DNA of 64,000 nucleotides, taken from the NCBI GenBank assembly GCA_030612725.1, contig JAUWNJ010000010.1, positions 32,837 to 96,836 of the forward strand, given 5' to 3'. Of the stretch, positions 40,299-52,591 are shown piece after piece. The notes beneath the pieces were generated by a model. The model was given only the letters and a program-made list of their open reading frames with translations. It was not told where the DNA came from and did no database searches. The stretch's first letter is position 1, and every line of letters begins with the position of its first letter. The position numbers and the translations under genes are program-made. The DNA is from Planctomycetales bacterium (GTDB lineage: Bacteria; Planctomycetota; Phycisphaerae; SM23-33).

Positions 40299-43100
40299 TC
40301 ATTCTTTTATCGGCGTCAGGTACATGGTGCCGAGGTTTTCCGGGCTGTAGAAGTATCGCACCGCGCCGGCCCAGCTTGATGCTTCGGACTCGGCGGTTGC
40401 GAATCGCGTGAAATTGATTCCCCACAACGGTTCGGTCCCGTCCGGGCCGAAGGCTTTCAGCGGGATCGCCAATTCGACGACCCAGAGTTTTTTATCTTTG
40501 GCGACGGCGGAACGGACCCGTACAGGCCAGGGCTTGACTCTTGCCGGTTCCGCGCCGATACCGCGCTCGGCGAGGATCACGCCATTGCACTTTACCACGA
40601 GATGATACAAATCGGCGGCGCTTTTTGCCTTCCGGCCCGGATCGATAATCAGTTCCACCATGTCCTCACCGGCGGCGAGGAACTGCTCGTATCGGACGAT
40701 GTTATCGGCGCGGGCGTGGAGTCTGTCCATTTTCGGCTCGTCGCAGCGGAACGCCACGTACAGGTTTTTATCGTCGCGCGTAACAAAAGCGGATGTCCGG
40801 CGACGGGCAAGCCCTTTTCCGCCCCTGCCCCGTCGGCCCAGCACGATAAAGGCTCCGGCGGTATTTCCTGCTCGCAGCGGCCAATCGTCAAGATTCCCGT
40901 CAATGACAATCGCTTTGGCGACGGTTCCGGCCCGGATGAACGGAACGCAGGCGAGGAGGTCTTCGGTTCGGCCCGGGGTGGTGGTCATCGCCAGTGGGAT
41001 ATTTATTTTCGCGTCTGAACCCGTTGGGATACCGACGCCTTCGGCGGCAAGGGTCAGGACGGTAAGTTCGCTTCCTTTGAGTCGTTTTTGGATTCGGGCG
41101 GTTGTCGGTTTCCACCCTGCCGGAAGATCGGCGATTCGCAACTCCACATCAACCGGATTGGTCTGTTCGTTGTAAAGTTCCGCTCGGACAACAGCGGCGA
41201 AACGCCCGTGGCCAAGCATTTTCACGCGCGAACGAATCCGCTCGACACGAACCCGGCAGGTAAGTTGGCGAAGTTGTTTCCAGGCGAGTTGTTCGGACAG
41301 GAGTTGGCGACGGGAAACATTTTCAGGATGGACGGCCGAAAGGACTTCTTCGGCGAGGAGTCTTCGGGCGGATGTCCAGACTTCGCCGTCGGCGACCCAT
41401 CCGCGAAATCTCGCGTCGAGGTGATGGTCCCCGGCTGCGTCCAGGCAGGCATAATGGACCATTGTATCGATCATTACCCGCGCGACGGCGGCTCTTTGCC
41501 TTTGTCGCAGCAACCAGAGATAGGCGACATCCTGCAAACCCCGACGGAGGCGCTTGAGGCGAACCGAAGGAAAAACCGTATCGCCGTCAGAGGTCTTACC
41601 CGGATAAAACAAGCGGTCTTCGTTACCGGCCTGCTTTGACCAGTTGAGCACTTCGGGTATGAAGACGCCGGGGCAGTCGTATTTCATCGCTATCCATGCC
41701 AATGCGCGAACGTCGGCGGGCGAACTCAACACGCCGCATCCGCCCAGGTACGGAGGCCTGCCCGGACGAAGCCAGAGACCGGCCAAACGGTGGCTTCGGG
41801 CGAGTCGTTTCGCATCGGATGGGTTAACCATATGCGCCGGTGGCGCGTACATATCGGCCAACGATGCAAAATCCTTCGGAGGGTTCCCAAAACGTAGCAC
41901 GGGCGGGACGCCCGTGTTACGTAGCATGGGCGGGACGCCCGTGTTACGCCGAGCCGGTGGAAGTTCGGTCAAAATCGGCGTTTCAGGTCCGGTCAAACGA
42001 ACCAGACGCGCAAGAGATGAATAACGCTCATAAGCCCGTTGCCCGCTCGAATCGGACCTCGGCCAGACGAACAGGCGGTCGCCGAACCCGATGCTCTTGA
42101 AATGCTCGACCGTCCCAGCCAGAACAGCCCCGGCGGTCTTGCGATAGGCATCCGCAGCGATCCCGCCGTAATTCGCCGGTTCAGGCCAGCCGGTACGGAA
42201 TGGCGCAGGCCAGGCCGATACGCCGACGCGGTCGTCAAAGGCCGAGCCGTCGAGGTATGGCTTGACGATGTTGTCGTAATCATCCCACCGAAGCGCCACC
42301 GCTCCGGACATGTCACGTTTAATGGTCGGATGGATGGACTTATCGAACAGGTCCACGCGATGCTCGTGCGCCAGACGCATCAATCGGCGGATAACAGTCA
42401 GGCCCGCGCGGACATCCTCTTTCGCCGCGTCGAGACGGACGGGAACTGCTCCGCCAAAGGTTGAAAAAATCGTCTCGTAACCAAATCCGCCCATGCACGC
42501 GACCGGCTTGGCGTCGGGAAGGACGAAGTCGTACACCTTCAGCGCCACCTTCGCTCGCGTCAGGCCTCGGCTCGACGAGGCCGTAATTGCGCCGACGTAA
42601 TCGCCCGGAAGCCTGTCACGCCGGACGGCTACATCCACCCAGACCGCCAGCCGCTCGCCGGGACCGACGTCAAACGAATCGGACGGCTTCATCGGTTGCA
42701 ACGCGTCGTAGAACCTTACCGGCCTGACGGGTGCGTCGGTCAGGAGGAGATACCATGCCGGATAACGCTCAATCGCCACAGGCAGCATTCGGAACAATTT
42801 AACGTTCTCGACGCCGATCTTCCGCCCGCCGAAGCCGGTAAGCGGGCTGACGGACAGTTTTACTTCTTCAAGCCCGTCGGCAGGAGCGTCCAGAACCAAC
42901 TGAAAACTGACCGTTTCGTTGGCGGCTGAAAAGAGATTGACGCTCCGCGAATCAGCGTCCCATACACTGCTGACCCTGGACGCCTGCGTCTGCTCGGTCA
43001 GGTGTACCATGTCCCCCGCCACCCAGAGGTGCCCCGGGCCGGGCCGACCACAGCCGGCGAGGCTCAGGCACGCAATCAATAATGTCAGTCGTCGCAACAC
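40299..43100 (-). CDS. Large (933 aa) hypothetical lipoprotein
   Basis: Signal peptide plus lipobox (LSLAGC). Contains an internal in-frame tandem duplication caused by a 27-nt palindromic element. Confidence 0.45.
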   Translation of the reverse strand: MLRRLTLLIACLSLAGCGRPGPGHLWVAGDMVHLTEQTQASRVSSVWDADSRSVNLFSAANETVSFQLVLDAPADGLEEVKLSVSPLTGFGGRKIGVENVKLFRMLPVAIERYPAWYLLLTDAPVRPVRFYDALQPMKPSDSFDVGPGERLAVWVDVAVRRDRLPGDYVGAITASSSRGLTRAKVALKVYDFVLPDAKPVACMGGFGYETIFSTFGGAVPVRLDAAKEDVRAGLTVIRRLMRLAHEHRVDLFDKSIHPTIKRDMSGAVALRWDDYDNIVKPYLDGSAFDDRVGVSAWPAPFRTGWPEPANYGGIAADAYRKTAGAVLAGTVEHFKSIGFGDRLFVWPRSDSSGQRAYERYSSLARLVRLTGPETPILTELPPARRNTGVPPMLRNTGVPPVLRFGNPPKDFASLADMYAPPAHMVNPSDAKRLARSHRLAGLWLRPGRPPYLGGCGVLSSPADVRALAWIAMKYDCPGVFIPEVLNWSKQAGNEDRLFYPGKTSDGDTVFPSVRLKRLRRGLQDVAYLWLLRQRQRAAVARVMIDTMVHYACLDAAGDHHLDARFRGWVADGEVWTSARRLLAEEVLSAVHPENVSRRQLLSEQLAWKQLRQLTCRVRVERIRSRVKMLGHGRFAAVVRAELYNEQTNPVDVELRIADLPAGWKPTTARIQKRLKGSELTVLTLAAEGVGIPTGSDAKINIPLAMTTTPGRTEDLLACVPFIRAGTVAKAIVIDGNLDDWPLRAGNTAGAFIVLGRRGRGGKGLARRRTSAFVTRDDKNLYVAFRCDEPKMDRLHARADNIVRYEQFLAAGEDMVELIIDPGRKAKSAADLYHLVVKCNGVILAERGIGAEPARVKPWPVRVRSAVAKDKKLWVVELAIPLKAFGPDGTEPLWGINFTRFATAESEASSWAGAVRYFYSPENLGTMYLTPIKE
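41892..41947. repeat. Tandem 2x 27-nt palindromic element (acgtagcaYgggcgggacgcccgtgtt) inside coding sequence
   Basis: Two adjacent copies give the peptide repeat RNTGVPPMLRNTGVPPVL in the minus-strand ORF. It belongs to the same family as the hairpins at 424-447 and 22577-22598. Confidence 0.55.
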
Positions 43101-43152
43101 AGACCCTGGATTGTACCGGGTCAGGCCCGGAAAATAAAACGGCAGGGAAGAA

Positions 43153-43302
43153 TTGGTTGACTGGATTATCTGGTTGACTGGTTGACTGGTTGATTGGTTG
43201 ATTGGTTGACTGGTTGATTGGTTGACTGGTTGATTGGTGAATCGGTTTTGCTTTTCGTTTCTGTTGTTGCCTAAACCCTATTCCCTAGTCCCAAGTCCCT
43301 AT
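43153..43302. repeat. Composite repeat array (left): about 11 tandem 8-nt units ggttgaYt, followed by a ctaaaccctattccctagtcccaagtccctatc block
   Basis: Read directly. It is the reverse-complement counterpart of the array at 52447-52591. Confidence 0.6.
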
Positions 43303-43307
43303 CTTTT

Positions 43308-43583
43308 TCACACATCCCCGTTTTTGGCGATTGCCTCATCTTCGTAAGGCCCCAGCAGCCTGCGGTAGCACTCCAACTGACAACAGGTCAGCACGCCGCC
43401 GATGAAATCCTGAGCGCGCGAATACCGCATTCCCTTTTCCTCCAGGTATCGCTTGATAATCGAATAGATAATGTAATTGAGATGCCCCTTGGCGGCATCG
43501 TCGTTCAGGGCGGACAACTTCGCAACGACATCCCCAATGGCCTGTTCGTATTGACCCCTGTCTTCTTGTGGTATGTACGGCAT
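43308..43583 (-). CDS. Small hypothetical protein (about 91 aa)
   Basis: ORF with a gggagg RBS 7 nt upstream of the MPYIP start. Lower GC. No family. Confidence 0.35.
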   Translation of the reverse strand: MPYIPQEDRGQYEQAIGDVVAKLSALNDDAAKGHLNYIIYSIIKRYLEEKGMRYSRAQDFIGGVLTCCQLECYRRLLGPYEDEAIAKNGDV

Positions 43584-43634
43584 CAATCTGCCTCCCATCT
43601 ATCCGTCCGTGATGCATATCCCGTTATTTAAGGA

Positions 43635-43686
43635 AACTATAATAACCGAATCGTTATTATAGTTTTTCGCCAAAAACTATAATAAC
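43635..43686. promoter_or_regulatory. Operator-like perfect palindrome AACTATAATAAC-N6-GTTATTATAGTT plus a third half-site, upstream of the small gene 43308..43583
   Basis: aactataataac at 43635-43646, gttattatagtt at 43653-43664, aactataataac again at 43675-43686. AT-rich, about 50-100 nt upstream of the minus-strand start codon. Confidence 0.5.
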
Positions 43687-43708
43687 AAAGAATGCCCACG
43701 ATTACCCG

Positions 43709-44731
43709 TTACCGTAAGTTTGAAATCTCGATGAGTTTTTCCAGTGCTTTGGCGGCTTTTCCTGAATCGATTGACTCGGAGGCCGGGGCGATACCGGCGG
43801 CGATGGAATCGACCCTGTCTGCGACGACCAGGGCGGCTGCGGCGTTGAGAACGACAATGTCGCGGTCTGGACCGGTCTTGCCGGCGAGGACGGCGCGGGT
43901 TCGCTCGGACGATTCTTCCGCCGATTTTACCGATAAGTCCGCCATAGTCGCTCTGGCAAGGGAAAAATCTTCAGGCTGGACGGTGAAGGTGGTGATTTCG
44001 CCGTCTTTCAGTTCGGCGATGCGCGTCGGACTGGTGATGGAGATTTCGTCCAGCCCGTCGTCTGCGTGAACGACCATCGCCCGTTGCGAACCGAGGGCCT
44101 TGAGAACCTCGGCGATTGTCTCGATGAGAGCGCCGTCGAAGACGCCCATGAGTTGCCTCTTCGCCCCGGCTGGGTTTGTCAGGGGTCCGAGAACGTTGAA
44201 GATCGTTCGGATGCCGAGCGCTTTGCGAACCGGAACGGCGTATTTCATTGCGGGGTGATGTTTGACGGCGAAGCAGAATCCAATGTTGGCCTCGGCGAGG
44301 CATCGGGCGACTGTTTTCTCATCGGCGTCGATGTTAACGCCGAGCGCCGCCAGCACGTCGGCCGATCCGCTGGCGCGGGTGTGCGTGCGGTTTCCGTGCT
44401 TGGCGACGGTTACTCCCGCTCCGGCGGCGACCAGGGCGGCGGCCGTTGAGACATTCAGCGTACTCATCCCCGTCCCGCCGGTGCCGCAGGTGTCGATAAC
44501 GTCCAGCCCGCCGGTGTCGATCTTCACCGATTGGGCGCGCATGGCAGTGGCCGCTCCTGTAATCTCCGCGACGCTCTCGCCGCGCGTCGCCATCGCCACC
44601 AGCAGGCCTGCAATCTGCGCCTCGCTCCACGCGCCGCTCATTATCTGCCCGAAGGCGTCTCTCGCCTGCTCGCGGGTCAAACCTTCGCCCATCGCAGCGC
44701 GAAGAACCTCTCTGTATTCCATCTCTGACAT
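43709..44731 (-). CDS. trpD: Anthranilate phosphoribosyltransferase
   Basis: DTCGTGGTGMSTLNVSTAAALVAAGAGVTVAKHGNR and downstream TrpD motifs. The internal MSEMEYREVL start is preferred. Confidence 0.8.
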   Translation of the reverse strand: MSEMEYREVLRAAMGEGLTREQARDAFGQIMSGAWSEAQIAGLLVAMATRGESVAEITGAATAMRAQSVKIDTGGLDVIDTCGTGGTGMSTLNVSTAAALVAAGAGVTVAKHGNRTHTRASGSADVLAALGVNIDADEKTVARCLAEANIGFCFAVKHHPAMKYAVPVRKALGIRTIFNVLGPLTNPAGAKRQLMGVFDGALIETIAEVLKALGSQRAMVVHADDGLDEISITSPTRIAELKDGEITTFTVQPEDFSLARATMADLSVKSAEESSERTRAVLAGKTGPDRDIVVLNAAAALVVADRVDSIAAGIAPASESIDSGKAAKALEKLIEISNLR

Positions 44732-44822
44732 GATATTTTCCTCATTGCGTTGAAGAATCTTCTGTTGTCTGAACGGTACATTGTGAATTATAGTCTTCAC
44801 TCCATTTGGAGCAACTGTATCT

Positions 44823-46328: not shown

Positions 46329-46503
46329 TAAAGGTGCAAATAATGCCCGTCTCTAAAGCCGATAGATGAGCGACGCGAAGCGCCCCTTCGGGAAGCGAAT
46401 CCGTCGGAAACGAAAATAAACTCGAAAGATTCCGAAAAATCGCCGAAAGTAAAAATACCTGCTTGAAAACTCGCCGGGTTGCGGCGAAGATGAACGGGTA
46501 TGT

Positions 46504-46577
<74 letters not shown>

Positions 46578-46667
46578 ATGTTTGACCTGCCGGGTTTTTT
46601 CTTGACGAACCTGTCGGGTTTGGGATAAAAACTCGGTAGGTTTGTGTAATTAACGATACAAAGGAGC

Positions 46668-46802: not shown

Positions 46803-46851
46803 TTCGCGCCCGTTCTATTTCTCCTCGCGCCGCCGCCTAAGGTGTCAGCAA

Positions 46852-46881
46852 CCTCGTATGCTTTAGGCTTTGCATACGAGG
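46852..46881 (+). terminator. Perfect 10-bp hairpin cctcgtatgc-N10-gcatacgagg followed by a T-rich stretch
   Basis: Read directly. Lies downstream of the small ORF and upstream of holA. Confidence 0.35.
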
Positions 46882-46925
46882 TTTGTTCTATGCGAGTTTC
46901 AAAGCAGCCATTGCGACTCGGGTGA

Positions 46926-48807: not shown

Positions 48808-50112
48808 ATGAGCGAAAACACAAAAAATCCCCCCACCTACTTCACCGATGCCGCCGGACGCTTCACCCTCTATCAGGGAAATTGCCTCGAACTGATGCCG
48901 CTACTACCGGCCTGCTCATTCGACCTCATCTTCGCCGACCCGCCGTATTTCCTCTCCAACGGCGGAATCACATGCCATGCCGGGAAGATGGTCTCCGTCA
49001 ACAAGGGCAAATGGGACCGCTCGATGGGCTTCGCCGGAAACTACGCATTCACCAAAGACTGGATCGCCCGATGCCAACGCCTCCTCAAACCCAACGGGAC
49101 AATGTTCGTCTCCGGCACCAGCCACATCATACACATCGTCGGAGCCGTTATGGACGAACTAGGCCTGAAAATCCTAAACGACATCACCTGGGTAAAGCCG
49201 AACCCGCCGCCGAACCTGTCGTGCCGGTATTTCACGCACGCTGCCGAGACGATTCTCTGGGCAGGCCGGGATAAAAAGTGCCGGCACAAGTTCAATTATC
49301 AGTTGATGAAGCGAATCAACGGCGGAAAGCAGATGAAGAGCGTCTGGACGGATATAGAAACGCCGCGACGGGACGAAAAAGTCTTCGGAAAGCACCCGAC
49401 GCAGAAACCGCTCGCCCTTCTGGAGCGGATAATCGCAGCCGCCAGCGACGAAGGCGACCTCATCCTCGACCCCTTCAGCGGCTCAGCCACAACAGGAATC
49501 GCGGCTGCAAGAATGAACAGACAATCCATAGGCCTGGAGATGGAAACGGAATTTCTGGATATCGGCGTGCATCGTTTCGTCGGCGTGCCACAGGCTGACA
49601 ATCCCGACCGCATTCTCGATTTAATAAAAGTACATGCTTTGGGAAATCCGACTCCAACCGAACTTGCACGTTGCTTGGGCATGACTGAACGCCAGGCGCA
49701 TTACTACCGGCAAGCCGCTTCAATACTCGGACTACTTCGACGCTCGGAAAGCGGCTGGGCATTGACCGAAATCGGAAAGACCATTTGCGAAAACAGGCAA
49801 TTGTACGCCCGTTCACTTTTAGCGCAAAGGATACTGGAACTTCCGCTCGTCCAGTCAGCCATCAGGAAAAGCCGGAGGTATCGCACCAAAAACACAAAAT
49901 GCCGAATCATTGCAGAGTTATTATCCCGCAGCACCGCACTGACCGGTTCGACTTGCACACGGCGAGCACAAACGCTCTTGGCATGGATAGATTGGTCGCT
50001 GGCGCACTGTTGCGCCGAACCTGTCCTGCCGGTATTTCACGCACACTGCCGAGACGATTCTCTGGGGCGGCAAAACGAAAAGTTGGTAAAATGCCAACGG
50101 TTCGCTATATAA
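48808..50112 (+). CDS. Beta-class N6-adenine DNA methyltransferase of the CcrM/M.HinfI family (probable GANTC specificity) with an extended C-terminal region
   Basis: FADPPY (motif IV) precedes LDPFSGSATTG (motif I), the beta-class order. Block-by-block similarity to CcrM (ILNDITWVKPNPPPN, FNYQLMK, HPTQKPLALLERII). The C-terminal ~170 aa are atypical. Confidence 0.8.
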   Translation: MSENTKNPPTYFTDAAGRFTLYQGNCLELMPLLPACSFDLIFADPPYFLSNGGITCHAGKMVSVNKGKWDRSMGFAGNYAFTKDWIARCQRLLKPNGTMFVSGTSHIIHIVGAVMDELGLKILNDITWVKPNPPPNLSCRYFTHAAETILWAGRDKKCRHKFNYQLMKRINGGKQMKSVWTDIETPRRDEKVFGKHPTQKPLALLERIIAAASDEGDLILDPFSGSATTGIAAARMNRQSIGLEMETEFLDIGVHRFVGVPQADNPDRILDLIKVHALGNPTPTELARCLGMTERQAHYYRQAASILGLLRRSESGWALTEIGKTICENRQLYARSLLAQRILELPLVQSAIRKSRRYRTKNTKCRIIAELLSRSTALTGSTCTRRAQTLLAWIDWSLAHCCAEPVLPVFHAHCRDDSLGRQNEKLVKCQRFAI

Positions 50113-50121
50113 TCGCACACC

Positions 50122-50859
50122 ATGAAACAATATGAAGCAGTCATTCGGACGTTGGAAAACCTGGGGGGTCTCGCAACGTTAGGACAACTCTACGGCGAGG
50201 TGTTCAAAATAACCGACTGCAAATGGGGGACGAAAACGCCGCTTGCAAGCATCCGCCGCATCGTTCAAACGCGCAAAGAAATCTACAAGATAAAACCTGG
50301 CCTCTACGGATTGACCACACTGAAAAGAGAACACGTCTCTCGCGGTATCGTCGCGGAAACGGCGAAGAACAGGGATTCTGCCGAAGTGGTGCGCTTCAAC
50401 CATACCTACTATCAGGGTTTGCTGCTCATCGTCGGAAAACTGAAGCGATTTGATTGCTGGTCGCCCAATCAGGATAAAAACAAAGTGTTTTTGGACGGAA
50501 CAATTGATTCGCTCCGCACCCTCAAGGAGATGCCGCGCTTTTCATACGATAATTTGGTGAATCGCAGCGCGACCGTCGATGTTATCTGGTTCAATGAGCG
50601 CGGAATGCCGAGCAGTTTTTTTGAGATTGAACACAGCAGCGACATCCAAAACTCGCTGCTCAAGTTCAACGACTTGCAGGATTTTCAGACTCGAATGTTC
50701 ATCGTCTCAAACACCAAACGCCGCAAGGAGTATGAAAGCAAAATCAAATACTCTTCGTTTCGGGATATTGCGGGCAGGGCGAAGTTTCTTTCCTTCGATT
50801 GGCTCGTGAAGGAATACGAGCACACCGTCGAAGCAAGCAGCGCAGAAGTAACGCTCTGA
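50122..50859 (+). CDS. Uncharacterised protein with N-terminal winged-helix-like domain and restriction-endonuclease-like C-terminal region; candidate cognate endonuclease
   Basis: Starts 10 nt after the methyltransferase stop. N-terminus resembles Mrr-N-type wH (GGLATLGQLYGEVFKI...IRRIVQTRKEIYKIKPGLYGL). VDVIWFN...FFEIEH could be a degenerate PD-(D/E)xK core. Lower GC. Confidence 0.4.
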   Translation: MKQYEAVIRTLENLGGLATLGQLYGEVFKITDCKWGTKTPLASIRRIVQTRKEIYKIKPGLYGLTTLKREHVSRGIVAETAKNRDSAEVVRFNHTYYQGLLLIVGKLKRFDCWSPNQDKNKVFLDGTIDSLRTLKEMPRFSYDNLVNRSATVDVIWFNERGMPSSFFEIEHSSDIQNSLLKFNDLQDFQTRMFIVSNTKRRKEYESKIKYSSFRDIAGRAKFLSFDWLVKEYEHTVEASSAEVTL

Positions 50860-50964
50860 TGAGTTTAAGGCGGGTAGCGTGGTCGCGTTTTTGGGGCCAC
50901 ATTTACGTCAGCGCGGCCACGGTTTGTTCCACCAGAAGGCACACAGCAAGGTTGCAACAATGCG

Positions 50965-52032
50965 ATGACAAAGAACGTTTGCGAGAAATGCATATACTGC
51001 AATGCTCCTGTGCAAGGTGGTTCGCAAGGGGACCACGTGATACCGGCAGCGCTTGGAAAGTTCCGAAACGCGACTAACTTCAAACGCATTTGCGTAAAGT
51101 GCAATTCCGAGATTGGCCGCTGTGAGGAACAACTACTAAGGTGCGGTCCGGGAGTGCTGTTCAGGCGATTGGTCATACCGGCAACCCACCGGTCACGCGG
51201 TCAACCCAGAGCTTCCATGACGGGCGCTGGGGGAGTCCCTCCTCCCGAGGTGTGGGCGCACTTCCCAGACCACAAAGAGGCCGTCACTCTAACCGAGTCA
51301 GGCCGAAACGTTGTCGGTTTCGATCACCTGGTTGTTTATGATGATAAGGATGAAGGTCATGTTGTACGTCTGAATCCGAACATGTCGCCGGAGGCACTTC
51401 GGGCGGCCGTCAAAAGGCTTGGCCTCAAGAAGATAAAGGTGACCACCTCGCACTTCGCCAAGAAAAACGAACACACATCTGATCTCTATCTGAAGATATT
51501 TTCACAGGCTTGGCCGGAAGCCCAATATGAGCAAAAACCAGATCTAGATCCGGGAGTGCATCCTGTTCCTGTCGAGTTTAAATTTGTTGCCACCGACCTT
51601 TACTTCCGTGCGATTGCGAAGATTGCTTTCCATTACTACCTGACACAGTCGATGAGGTCGCTAGGGAATGAAGACTATTTTCGAGAAATCAGGGACTTCA
51701 TCAGATACGGTGGCGGAAAACTTGCTGTGGACAAGTTCTTTATTGGCTCAAACATATTCAGTTTCCCGCAGTTCCTAAGTAACATGGTCCCCAGTTGGTG
51801 GCATCATATTCTTGCTACACTGGAGCGCGACGGAACCGTTTTCGCTATGGTCTGTCTCTTCTACGGCCCCGAGTGCAAAGGCGAACGGTACACGTTGGAA
51901 CTAGGAAAGATCCCGGGGCGTATTGTTTTGCCGAAGTCTTGCTGGGCACACACTTATGACTACTTCCGTCCCGAAGACATCGGCAAGTACGCTGGCAAAG
52001 TGCATCCGGTTTCTATCACCGCGCTGCGGTGA
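50965..52032 (+). CDS. HNH-nuclease-domain protein with large uncharacterised C-terminal domain
   Basis: N-terminal CEKCIYCNAPVQGGSQGDHVIPAALGKF...CVKCNSEIGRCE is an HNH/Zn motif. 355 aa. Lower GC than the flanks. Confidence 0.5.
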   Translation: MTKNVCEKCIYCNAPVQGGSQGDHVIPAALGKFRNATNFKRICVKCNSEIGRCEEQLLRCGPGVLFRRLVIPATHRSRGQPRASMTGAGGVPPPEVWAHFPDHKEAVTLTESGRNVVGFDHLVVYDDKDEGHVVRLNPNMSPEALRAAVKRLGLKKIKVTTSHFAKKNEHTSDLYLKIFSQAWPEAQYEQKPDLDPGVHPVPVEFKFVATDLYFRAIAKIAFHYYLTQSMRSLGNEDYFREIRDFIRYGGGKLAVDKFFIGSNIFSFPQFLSNMVPSWWHHILATLERDGTVFAMVCLFYGPECKGERYTLELGKIPGRIVLPKSCWAHTYDYFRPEDIGKYAGKVHPVSITALR

Positions 52033-52446: not shown

Positions 52447-52591
52447 AGATAGGGACCTAGGGACTTGGGACTAGAAGATAGGGCCTAGGGCGTAGGGCAT
52501 AGGGCGTAGGGCGTAGGGAATGCGTAGCATCACTACGTGAAAACAGATGAACCAGTCAACCAGTCAACCAGTCAACTAATCAACCATCAAC
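52447..52591. repeat. Composite repeat array (right): gatagggacctagggacttgggactag plus tagggc tandem units, then gcgtagcatcactacgtga, then accagtcaacc tandem units
   Basis: Reverse-complement arrangement of the array at 43153-43302. Confidence 0.6.

Follow-up and report, generated by a model that had tools for sequence, protein, structure and literature searches.

An inverted-repeat element between trpD and a DUF6899 gene in Planctomycetales, a candidate promoter/operator module

Introduction

The palindromic operators of toxin-antitoxin systems, of 434/P22-type repressors, of Arc/Mnt, and of ParG-type RHH proteins consist of multi-copy AT-rich inverted repeats, and the element described here, which lies between trpD and a small gene of the DUF6899 family, shares this organization. 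As with the operators of autoregulated genes, it overlaps a −10-like hexamer upstream of a small gene and has conserved arms around a free center. It differs from these operators, however, in its longer invariant arms (14 to 15 bp), in being missing from near-identical orthologues, and in lying beside a gene that is without a partner gene and whose product shows neither a DNA-binding domain nor a DNA-binding fold. With intrinsic terminators and REP-like hairpins it has in common a perfect stem-loop between co-oriented genes, and one relative (locus L004) has a REP-like palindrome at the same spot, but the element is AT-rich, lacks a U-tract, and is not repeated elsewhere in our searches. With its three arms and 6-nt spacer it is also reminiscent of FRT and Xer sites, and the element shares with FRT and dif its inverted arms of about 13 bp, the 6-nt spacer, its single-copy status, and AT-richness relative to the genome, and with FRT a third arm in direct repeat. 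To our knowledge, almost no cis-regulatory sites have been characterized in the Planctomycete phylum. We propose, with a probability of roughly 0.4, that this element is a lineage-specific promoter/operator module for the DUF6899 gene, recognized by a candidate factor encoded elsewhere.

Results and Discussion

Organization of the repeats

The element was found in a 64-kb stretch of Planctomycetales DNA (the window), where the following features are listed in the direction of transcription of the two genes:

43709..44800, minus strand: trpD (anthranilate phosphoribosyltransferase; TIGR01245, 401 bits), the same-strand upstream neighbor
43672..43686, unstranded: site s1, AAAAACTATAATAAC, read as GTTATTATAGTTTTT on the gene (minus) strand; the distal arm of palindrome HP1
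43668..43671, unstranded: HP1 center, CGCC on the plus strand and GGCG on the gene strand; free to vary
43653..43667, unstranded: site s2, GTTATTATAGTTTTT; the proximal HP1 arm, common to the palindrome at 43634-43665
43656..43661, minus strand: candidate −10 hexamer TATAAT, directed towards the DUF6899 gene, 73 nt before its ATG; a putative promoter element
43647..43652, unstranded: the 6-nt s2-s3 spacer, CGAATC
43634..43646, unstranded: site s3, AAACTATAATAAC, the third perfect copy; read as GTTATTATAGTTT on the gene strand
43623..43632, unstranded: site s4, GTTATTTAAG, a degenerate fourth copy, forming a GTTATT-N12-AATAAC inverted pair with s3
43591..43596, minus strand: Shine-Dalgarno sequence GGGAGG, 7 nt before the ATG; conserved in L010, L011, and L013
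43308..43583, minus strand: DUF6899 gene (91 aa, Pfam PF21840), with an acidic three-helix product

The repeat unit is 13 nt long, AAACTATAATAAC, and three copies are present within 43634-43686, the plus-strand order being AAACTATAATAAC (43634-43646), CGAATC, GTTATTATAGTTTTT (43653-43667), CGCC, and AAAAACTATAATAAC (43672-43686). A sequence-only reading of the window had reported three half-sites and a perfect palindrome with 12-bp arms, and the 12-mer AACTATAATAAC is indeed present at 43635-43646 and 43675-43686 on the plus strand and inverted at 43653-43664. The arms are 13 bp rather than 12, however, a fourth copy is added here, and the gap between the second and third 12-mers is 10 nt, not 11. 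Two perfect palindromes overlap and have s2 in common: that at 43634-43665, with 13-bp arms and the 6-nt spacer CGAATC, and the longer HP1, whose 15-bp arms enclose the 4-nt center CGCC (43653-43686). The motif GTTATTWWAG is found four times without mismatch in 64 bp (43623-43686) and nowhere else in the 64-kb window, and the sites form two inverted repeats, HP1 itself (GTTATT-N22-AATAAC, 43653-43686) and a weaker one (GTTATT-N12-AATAAC, 43623-43646). Chance clustering of the half-sites is excluded: at ≤2 mismatches the 12-mer has five matches against 1.39 expected, a count reached by 0 of 100 shuffles, and the two distant matches are at chance level.

The placement of the palindrome between the trpD 3′ end and the start of the 91-aa ORF, in a lower-GC locality, holds on both counts: the element starts 22 nt past the trpD stop codon (43709-43711) and ends 39 nt before the DUF6899 start at 43583, and local GC dips to 0.45 to 0.50 against a window mean of 0.566. 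The inverted repeats lie 51 to 103 nt upstream of the DUF6899 ATG, together with the gene-facing TATAAT. When arms of ≥11 bp and spacers of ≤14 nt are required, the whole window contains just one other perfect inverted repeat, at 46850-46883, AACCTCGTATGC-N10-GCATACGAGGTT; it comes after a small ORF and is trailed by TTTGTTCT, and thus has a terminator-like look.

No further copy of the element was found in the 64-kb window, which constitutes the search of its own genome, in loci L001 to L039, or in metagenome and viral contig scans that demanded perfect 12-bp arms, nor does the element lie upstream of genes other than DUF6899 in the window, the fetched loci, or the contig scans. Half-sites in front of many unrelated genes had been named as the mark of a global regulator site, and the pattern across the 64 kb of this genome, the fetched loci, and the contig scans is not of that kind; a small regulon elsewhere in the genome is conceivable. 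The spacer had no blastn match in phage and plasmid collections. Palindrome matches from the metagenome and viral scans (L029, L030, and L039) are just low-complexity AT-rich sequence, and one palindrome on an unrelated contig (L031) that shares the 12-mer arms lies downstream of an ORF and is compatible with chance in such a collection.

Conservation of HP1 and decay of the 6-nt-spaced palindrome

The closest loci are in Planctomycetales metagenome-assembled genomes, and the DUF6899 gene follows trpD in a dozen of these. The element is carried by the window's own contig (L001), L010, L011 (also L002 and L003), L013, and L012, and the conservation comparison draws on five distinct element copies, with four independent comparison lineages. 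In L010, L011, L013, and L012, the 29 HP1 arm positions have no substitutions; s1 is unchanged at all 15 positions and s2 is invariant save for the loop-closing base in L012. The adjacent gene has third-codon identities of 0.85, 0.87, 0.75, and 0.71, respectively, and at the synonymous rate neutral evolution would leave the HP1 arms unchanged in L012 with a probability of 5e-5, and in both L012 and L013 with one of about 1e-8. Elsewhere in L012, divergence is extensive, with changes at 3 of 4 positions of the HP1 center, 3 of 6 of the s2-s3 spacer, and 16 of 26 and 10 of 23 in the flanks.

Site s3 carries independent mutations in L011 (T>G), L013 (A>T), and L012 (three changes). As a result, 3 of the 13 s2:s3 pairs are lost, each of them in one or two sequences, and the palindrome at 43634-43665 is broken in three lineages. 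Within s3 only the outer GTTATT is conserved, and the s4 core AAATAAC (gene strand) is invariant at five of five loci. The conservation of the HP1 arms and of the outer hexamers of s3 and s4 thus points to a functional core composed of HP1 and two flanking hexamers; the earlier emphasis on 43634-43665 had fallen on the less conserved palindrome. We regard it as a selectively maintained cis element that is single-copy in everything searched. We note that the window spacer (43600-43712) differs from that of L010 at only 1 of 113 aligned positions, whereas identity of the adjacent gene is no more than 93% (85% for third codon positions), reflecting either constraint beyond the repeats or recent exchange of the segment.

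A putative promoter/operator for the DUF6899 gene

In the reading we favor, the 64-bp AT-rich block at 43623-43686 would be a cis-regulatory DNA module of the DUF6899 gene, allowing its transcription to start separately, downstream of trpD. In this model the inverted repeats would be bound by a sequence-specific DNA-binding protein, a dimer or tetramer whose gene lies elsewhere in the genome, and the bound protein would occlude the −10 region. Invariant stems around a free center fit major-groove reading of double-stranded DNA better than they fit an RNA helix, and sequence-specific reading of the duplex is further favored by the use of one hexamer four times, by a second stem that is negligible as RNA, and by the consensus TATAAT facing the DUF6899 gene. 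This TATAAT is the only promoter-like site in the 125-nt trpD-DUF6899 spacer, and relatives without the element have either an operon-like spacer (L015 and L038) or another promoter (L032). The element is also linked to the gene through rearrangements and is single-copy in the searches.

Several observations count against this reading. There is no recognizable −35 sequence, and a promoter scan finds no canonical −35/−10 pair in the 125-nt spacer. A sigma-70 scan of 20 kb gives counts equal to those of shuffles and is thus uninformative on promoters in this genome. The fully invariant 14- to 15-bp arms are longer than the usual operator half-site, the two inverted repeats differ in internal spacing (22 versus 12), and the element is dispensable, being absent from L038, L004, and L014. 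No regulator gene is annotated in the neighborhood of the element, and the DUF6899 gene of L012 has its own promoter downstream of it. By the symmetry of HP1, a second TATAAT points away from the DUF6899 gene. An antisense ORF (43692-44069) starts 8 nt after this TATAAT in a leaderless-like geometry, but it is rejected because L013 keeps HP1 with only 95 nt of trpD.

A mosaic spacer among close relatives

The element is present in some close relatives and absent from others. It is lacking in L038, in which the protein is 96% identical and the trpD-gene spacer is 19 nt, in L004 (90% identical), where an unrelated GC-rich palindrome with 37-bp arms is found instead, and in L014 (89% identical); in L015, also without it, the spacer is 5 nt. 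These short spacers of 5 to 19 nt look operon-like. Terminator-like sequences take the place of the element in L016 and L035, and in L032 the sequence upstream of the gene is a different one, with TTGTCT-16-TACAAT as a canonical promoter-like site. A similar promoter-like region (TTGTCT-16-TATAAT) lies downstream of the element in L012, and the element is thus not the proximal promoter there. In L012 trpD and the element are separated by a divergently inserted fic gene (Fic_N, Fic, and HTH_13 domains; L012 1598-2722), which starts 45 nt from HP1, and the second HP1 TATAAT faces fic. In L013, all that is left of trpD is 95 nt, behind an HD-domain gene. Neither the fic insertion nor the trpD truncation has parted the element from the DUF6899 gene. 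Overall, the spacer is a mosaic, with the fic insertion, a 140-nt insertion, the GC-rich palindrome, the trpD truncation, and different downstream genes. The fic gene was considered as a source of the trans-acting factor and rejected, there being no fic homologue in the window or at the other loci. The perfect GC-rich palindrome of L004 (about 1737-1819) has a T-rich/GCG/A-rich center that is loosely like that of HP1.

This variability raises a different explanation, that the element is a recombinase core-type site (FRT- or dif-like) or the leftover promoter or end of an inserted cassette such as fic. The spacer is a mosaic hot spot, presence or absence of the element varies among close relatives, and in L012 HP1 is 45 nt upstream of the fic start with its TATAAT facing fic. 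However, the 6-nt-spaced pair, which would correspond to the arms of FRT or dif, is the decaying one, no recombinase or transposase gene is near the element, and the window lacks the GC-skew switch expected of a dif-like site; nor is there a match to the dif core ATAA-N6-TTATGT, and the element is absent at this locus in close relatives. The L012 insertions lie 20 to 45 nt from the arms and not within the spacer, the want of fic homologues at the other loci speaks against a cassette relic, and a neutral relic would not stay invariant, nor is the element found in more than one copy in the searches. We regard this explanation as unlikely. A related and very improbable variant is that HP1 is recognized, in hairpin or cruciform form and by its sequence, by a protein such as a recombinase, an HUH-type nuclease, or a supercoiling sensor, with the trpD-DUF6899(-topA) junction as a hot spot of site-specific rearrangement; if true, this would account for the fic insertion and the swapping of cassettes as well as for the FRT-like arrangement of three arms.

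The genes beyond DUF6899 also differ among the relatives. A conserved region is present 260 nt downstream of the DUF6899 gene in L012, L013, L004, L014, and L032, and within it L012, L013, and L004 have a canonical terminator together with a TTGACA-type promoter. The gene that follows has been confirmed as topA (DNA topoisomerase I) in L013 (2711-5383) and L035 (from 1373), which suggests a trpD-DUF6899-topA arrangement in one group of relatives. In the clade of the window, an ORF of 913 to 933 aa without a Pfam domain is found where topA stands in that other group.

The DUF6899 protein is unlikely to bind the element

The small protein had been described as having no recognizable family, but it matches Pfam DUF6899 with an E value of 5e-23 (81.9 bits against a cut-off of 27) over its full length, residues 1 to 91 aligning to positions 1 to 85 of the 85-position profile. 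It shares with the family the MPYIP start and the YRRLLGPYED...NGDV end; the MPYIP start is kept in all homologues, and an in-frame ATG at 43598 is not conserved. The family is large, with 5,511 cluster representatives recovered in a profile search of 1.84 billion representatives, and we found no paper on DUF6899 or PF21840 in the literature searched. Searches of PHROGs, NCBIfam, PADLOC, and PDB sequences with the 91-aa protein gave no match.

The sequence-only reading assigned the locus to the class of tightly autoregulated small genes, such that the DUF6899 protein would bind the half-sites and repress its own promoter. The position of the element upstream of the gene and overlapping TATAAT, its occurrence only beside DUF6899 genes in the searches, and its travel with the gene through rearrangements are all in keeping with this model, and small helical proteins can dimerize. 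The protein is acidic, however (pI 5.0, net charge −3.4), and its AlphaFold model (pLDDT 94.8) consists of three long helices; neither the Pfam search, in which DUF6899 is the sole match, nor the model reveals an HTH or RHH domain, and fold comparison yields no DNA-binding fold match. No toxin, partition, or repressor partner gene is beside DUF6899 and the locus does not have the two-small-gene layout of toxin-antitoxin systems, the gene being monocistronic, or operon-like behind trpD in relatives. Orthologues as similar as those of L038, L004, and L014 do without the element, and no residue pattern in the protein alignment separates carriers from non-carriers. Nor does a comparable palindrome precede more distant DUF6899 genes, 25 of them viral and 13 at other genomic loci; where a palindrome upstream of these 38 homologues is significant, it is a terminator of the preceding gene. 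On phage contigs the gene sits within operons and overlaps the next gene. The 91-aa protein is unlikely to be the binder of the adjacent element, and the autoregulation model as a whole is improbable.

A DUF6899 homologue with 69% identity is present in phage-like contigs of 117 to 125 kb (L007/L008/L040), between RNA ligase and polynucleotide kinase/phosphatase genes and overlapping the start of the latter. This context hints at a link of DUF6899 to RNA repair or nucleic acid metabolism.

Structure in RNA

HP1, with the weaker second hairpin, might instead act as a stem-loop in a trpD-DUF6899 transcript or as a DNA cruciform, without sequence-specific recognition; roles in protecting the 3′ end of trpD mRNA, as an RNase III-type processing site, or as a 5′ stabilizer can be proposed. 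The predicted fold of HP1 is a perfect stem of 15 bp (−13.9 kcal/mol, z −8.3, with 0 of 200 shuffles as good), the 133-nt spacer transcript folds with z −2.8, and the operon-like spacing with trpD in relatives suggests that the spacer may be transcribed. A flanking T>C in L013 lengthens the HP1 palindrome to 17 bp, the s3 changes in L013 and L012 add one pair to the s3:s4 stem, and unrelated hairpins occupy the same place in relatives, with 37-bp GC-rich arms in L004 and terminator-like in L016.

The pattern of substitutions, by contrast, speaks against a structural RNA. The five-copy alignment shows no compensatory change in any pair and a single U-A to U-G change, at the loop, and neither covariation nor G-U drift is seen in the 14 invariant HP1 pairs despite 13 to 29% synonymous divergence. 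As RNA, the s3:s4 hairpin of the window has negligible stability (−4.1 kcal/mol, z −0.67), Rfam returns 0 matches at E values up to 1 across 42800-44000, and in L012 the element lies between divergent genes, upstream of the DUF6899 gene's own promoter. HP1 does not resemble an intrinsic terminator either: only 2 of its 15 pairs are G-C, it is followed by GAUUCGG rather than a U-tract, and a terminator scan is silent on it. The same lineage uses a different, canonical terminator after the DUF6899 gene, AAGCCCAGCCATTCGAATGGCTGGGCTTTTT, which is GC-rich with a T5 tail. We consider a purely structural role possible but doubtful. A weak terminator-like hairpin reported by the scan at 43718-43695 was discarded, its pairs being lost in L011 and L013 and such matches occurring at chance frequency.

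The sharing of s2 between the two palindromes also permits an attenuator, with s2 pairing alternatively with s1 or s3 to control trpD read-through. The two perfect hairpins are similarly stable (−13.9 and −12.7 kcal/mol), and UUUCCUU follows the s2:s3 stem on the gene strand. In L011, L013, and L012, however, this pairing is broken, while s1:s2 is 100% paired; a proper U-tract and a leader peptide are both lacking, the ribosome-binding site takes part in no pairing, and the trpD stop, 22 nt from s1, is probably too distant for s1 to be covered by a terminating ribosome. Attenuation therefore appears extremely improbable. An 11-nt complementarity between the HP1 center (43667-43677) and the DUF6899 3′ end (43320-43330) was also dismissed: about 0.1 such matches would be expected by chance in the region, and it is lost in L012, whose center differs.

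Implications

The element is a familiar general kind of cis site, situated beside a member of a large uncharacterized family, and if the promoter/operator reading is right it would be one more local operator/promoter that leaves the general picture unchanged. It would nonetheless give a defined 34-bp bait for finding a planctomycete transcription factor, and an entry point to how DUF6899 genes, a very large uncharacterized family of phages and bacteria, are expressed. A correction of use is that the small gene is not an orphan, and is probably not its own regulator.

Other features of the window

Repeats of other kinds are common in the vicinity. The next gene on the strand after DUF6899 is the 933-aa ORF, past a 207-nt spacer full of tandem repeats: an 8-bp array (TGGTTGAY, 10.5 copies) and an array of TAGGGAC-like 7-mers, at 43154-43238 and 43262-43300, lie just downstream of DUF6899. 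Their copy numbers differ among the window, L010, L011, and L038, as in microsatellites, and the reverse-complement unit AACCAGTC makes up a further array 9 kb off (52550-52591). There are many more intergenic arrays of 7- to 10-bp units in the window, and within the 933-aa ORF (41892-41948) there is a GC-rich 27-bp tandem and palindromic repeat, ACGTAGCACGGGCGGGACGCCCGTGTT, in 2.1 copies. A tRNA-Met (CAT) gene is located at 46503-46578, in a low-GC intergenic region downstream of a Metallophos/PHP gene. The lower-GC segment at 48808-52032 codes in a row for an N6/N4 DNA methylase with DUF7226, a domainless 245-aa ORF, and an HNH endonuclease, and may be a restriction-modification or mobile island.
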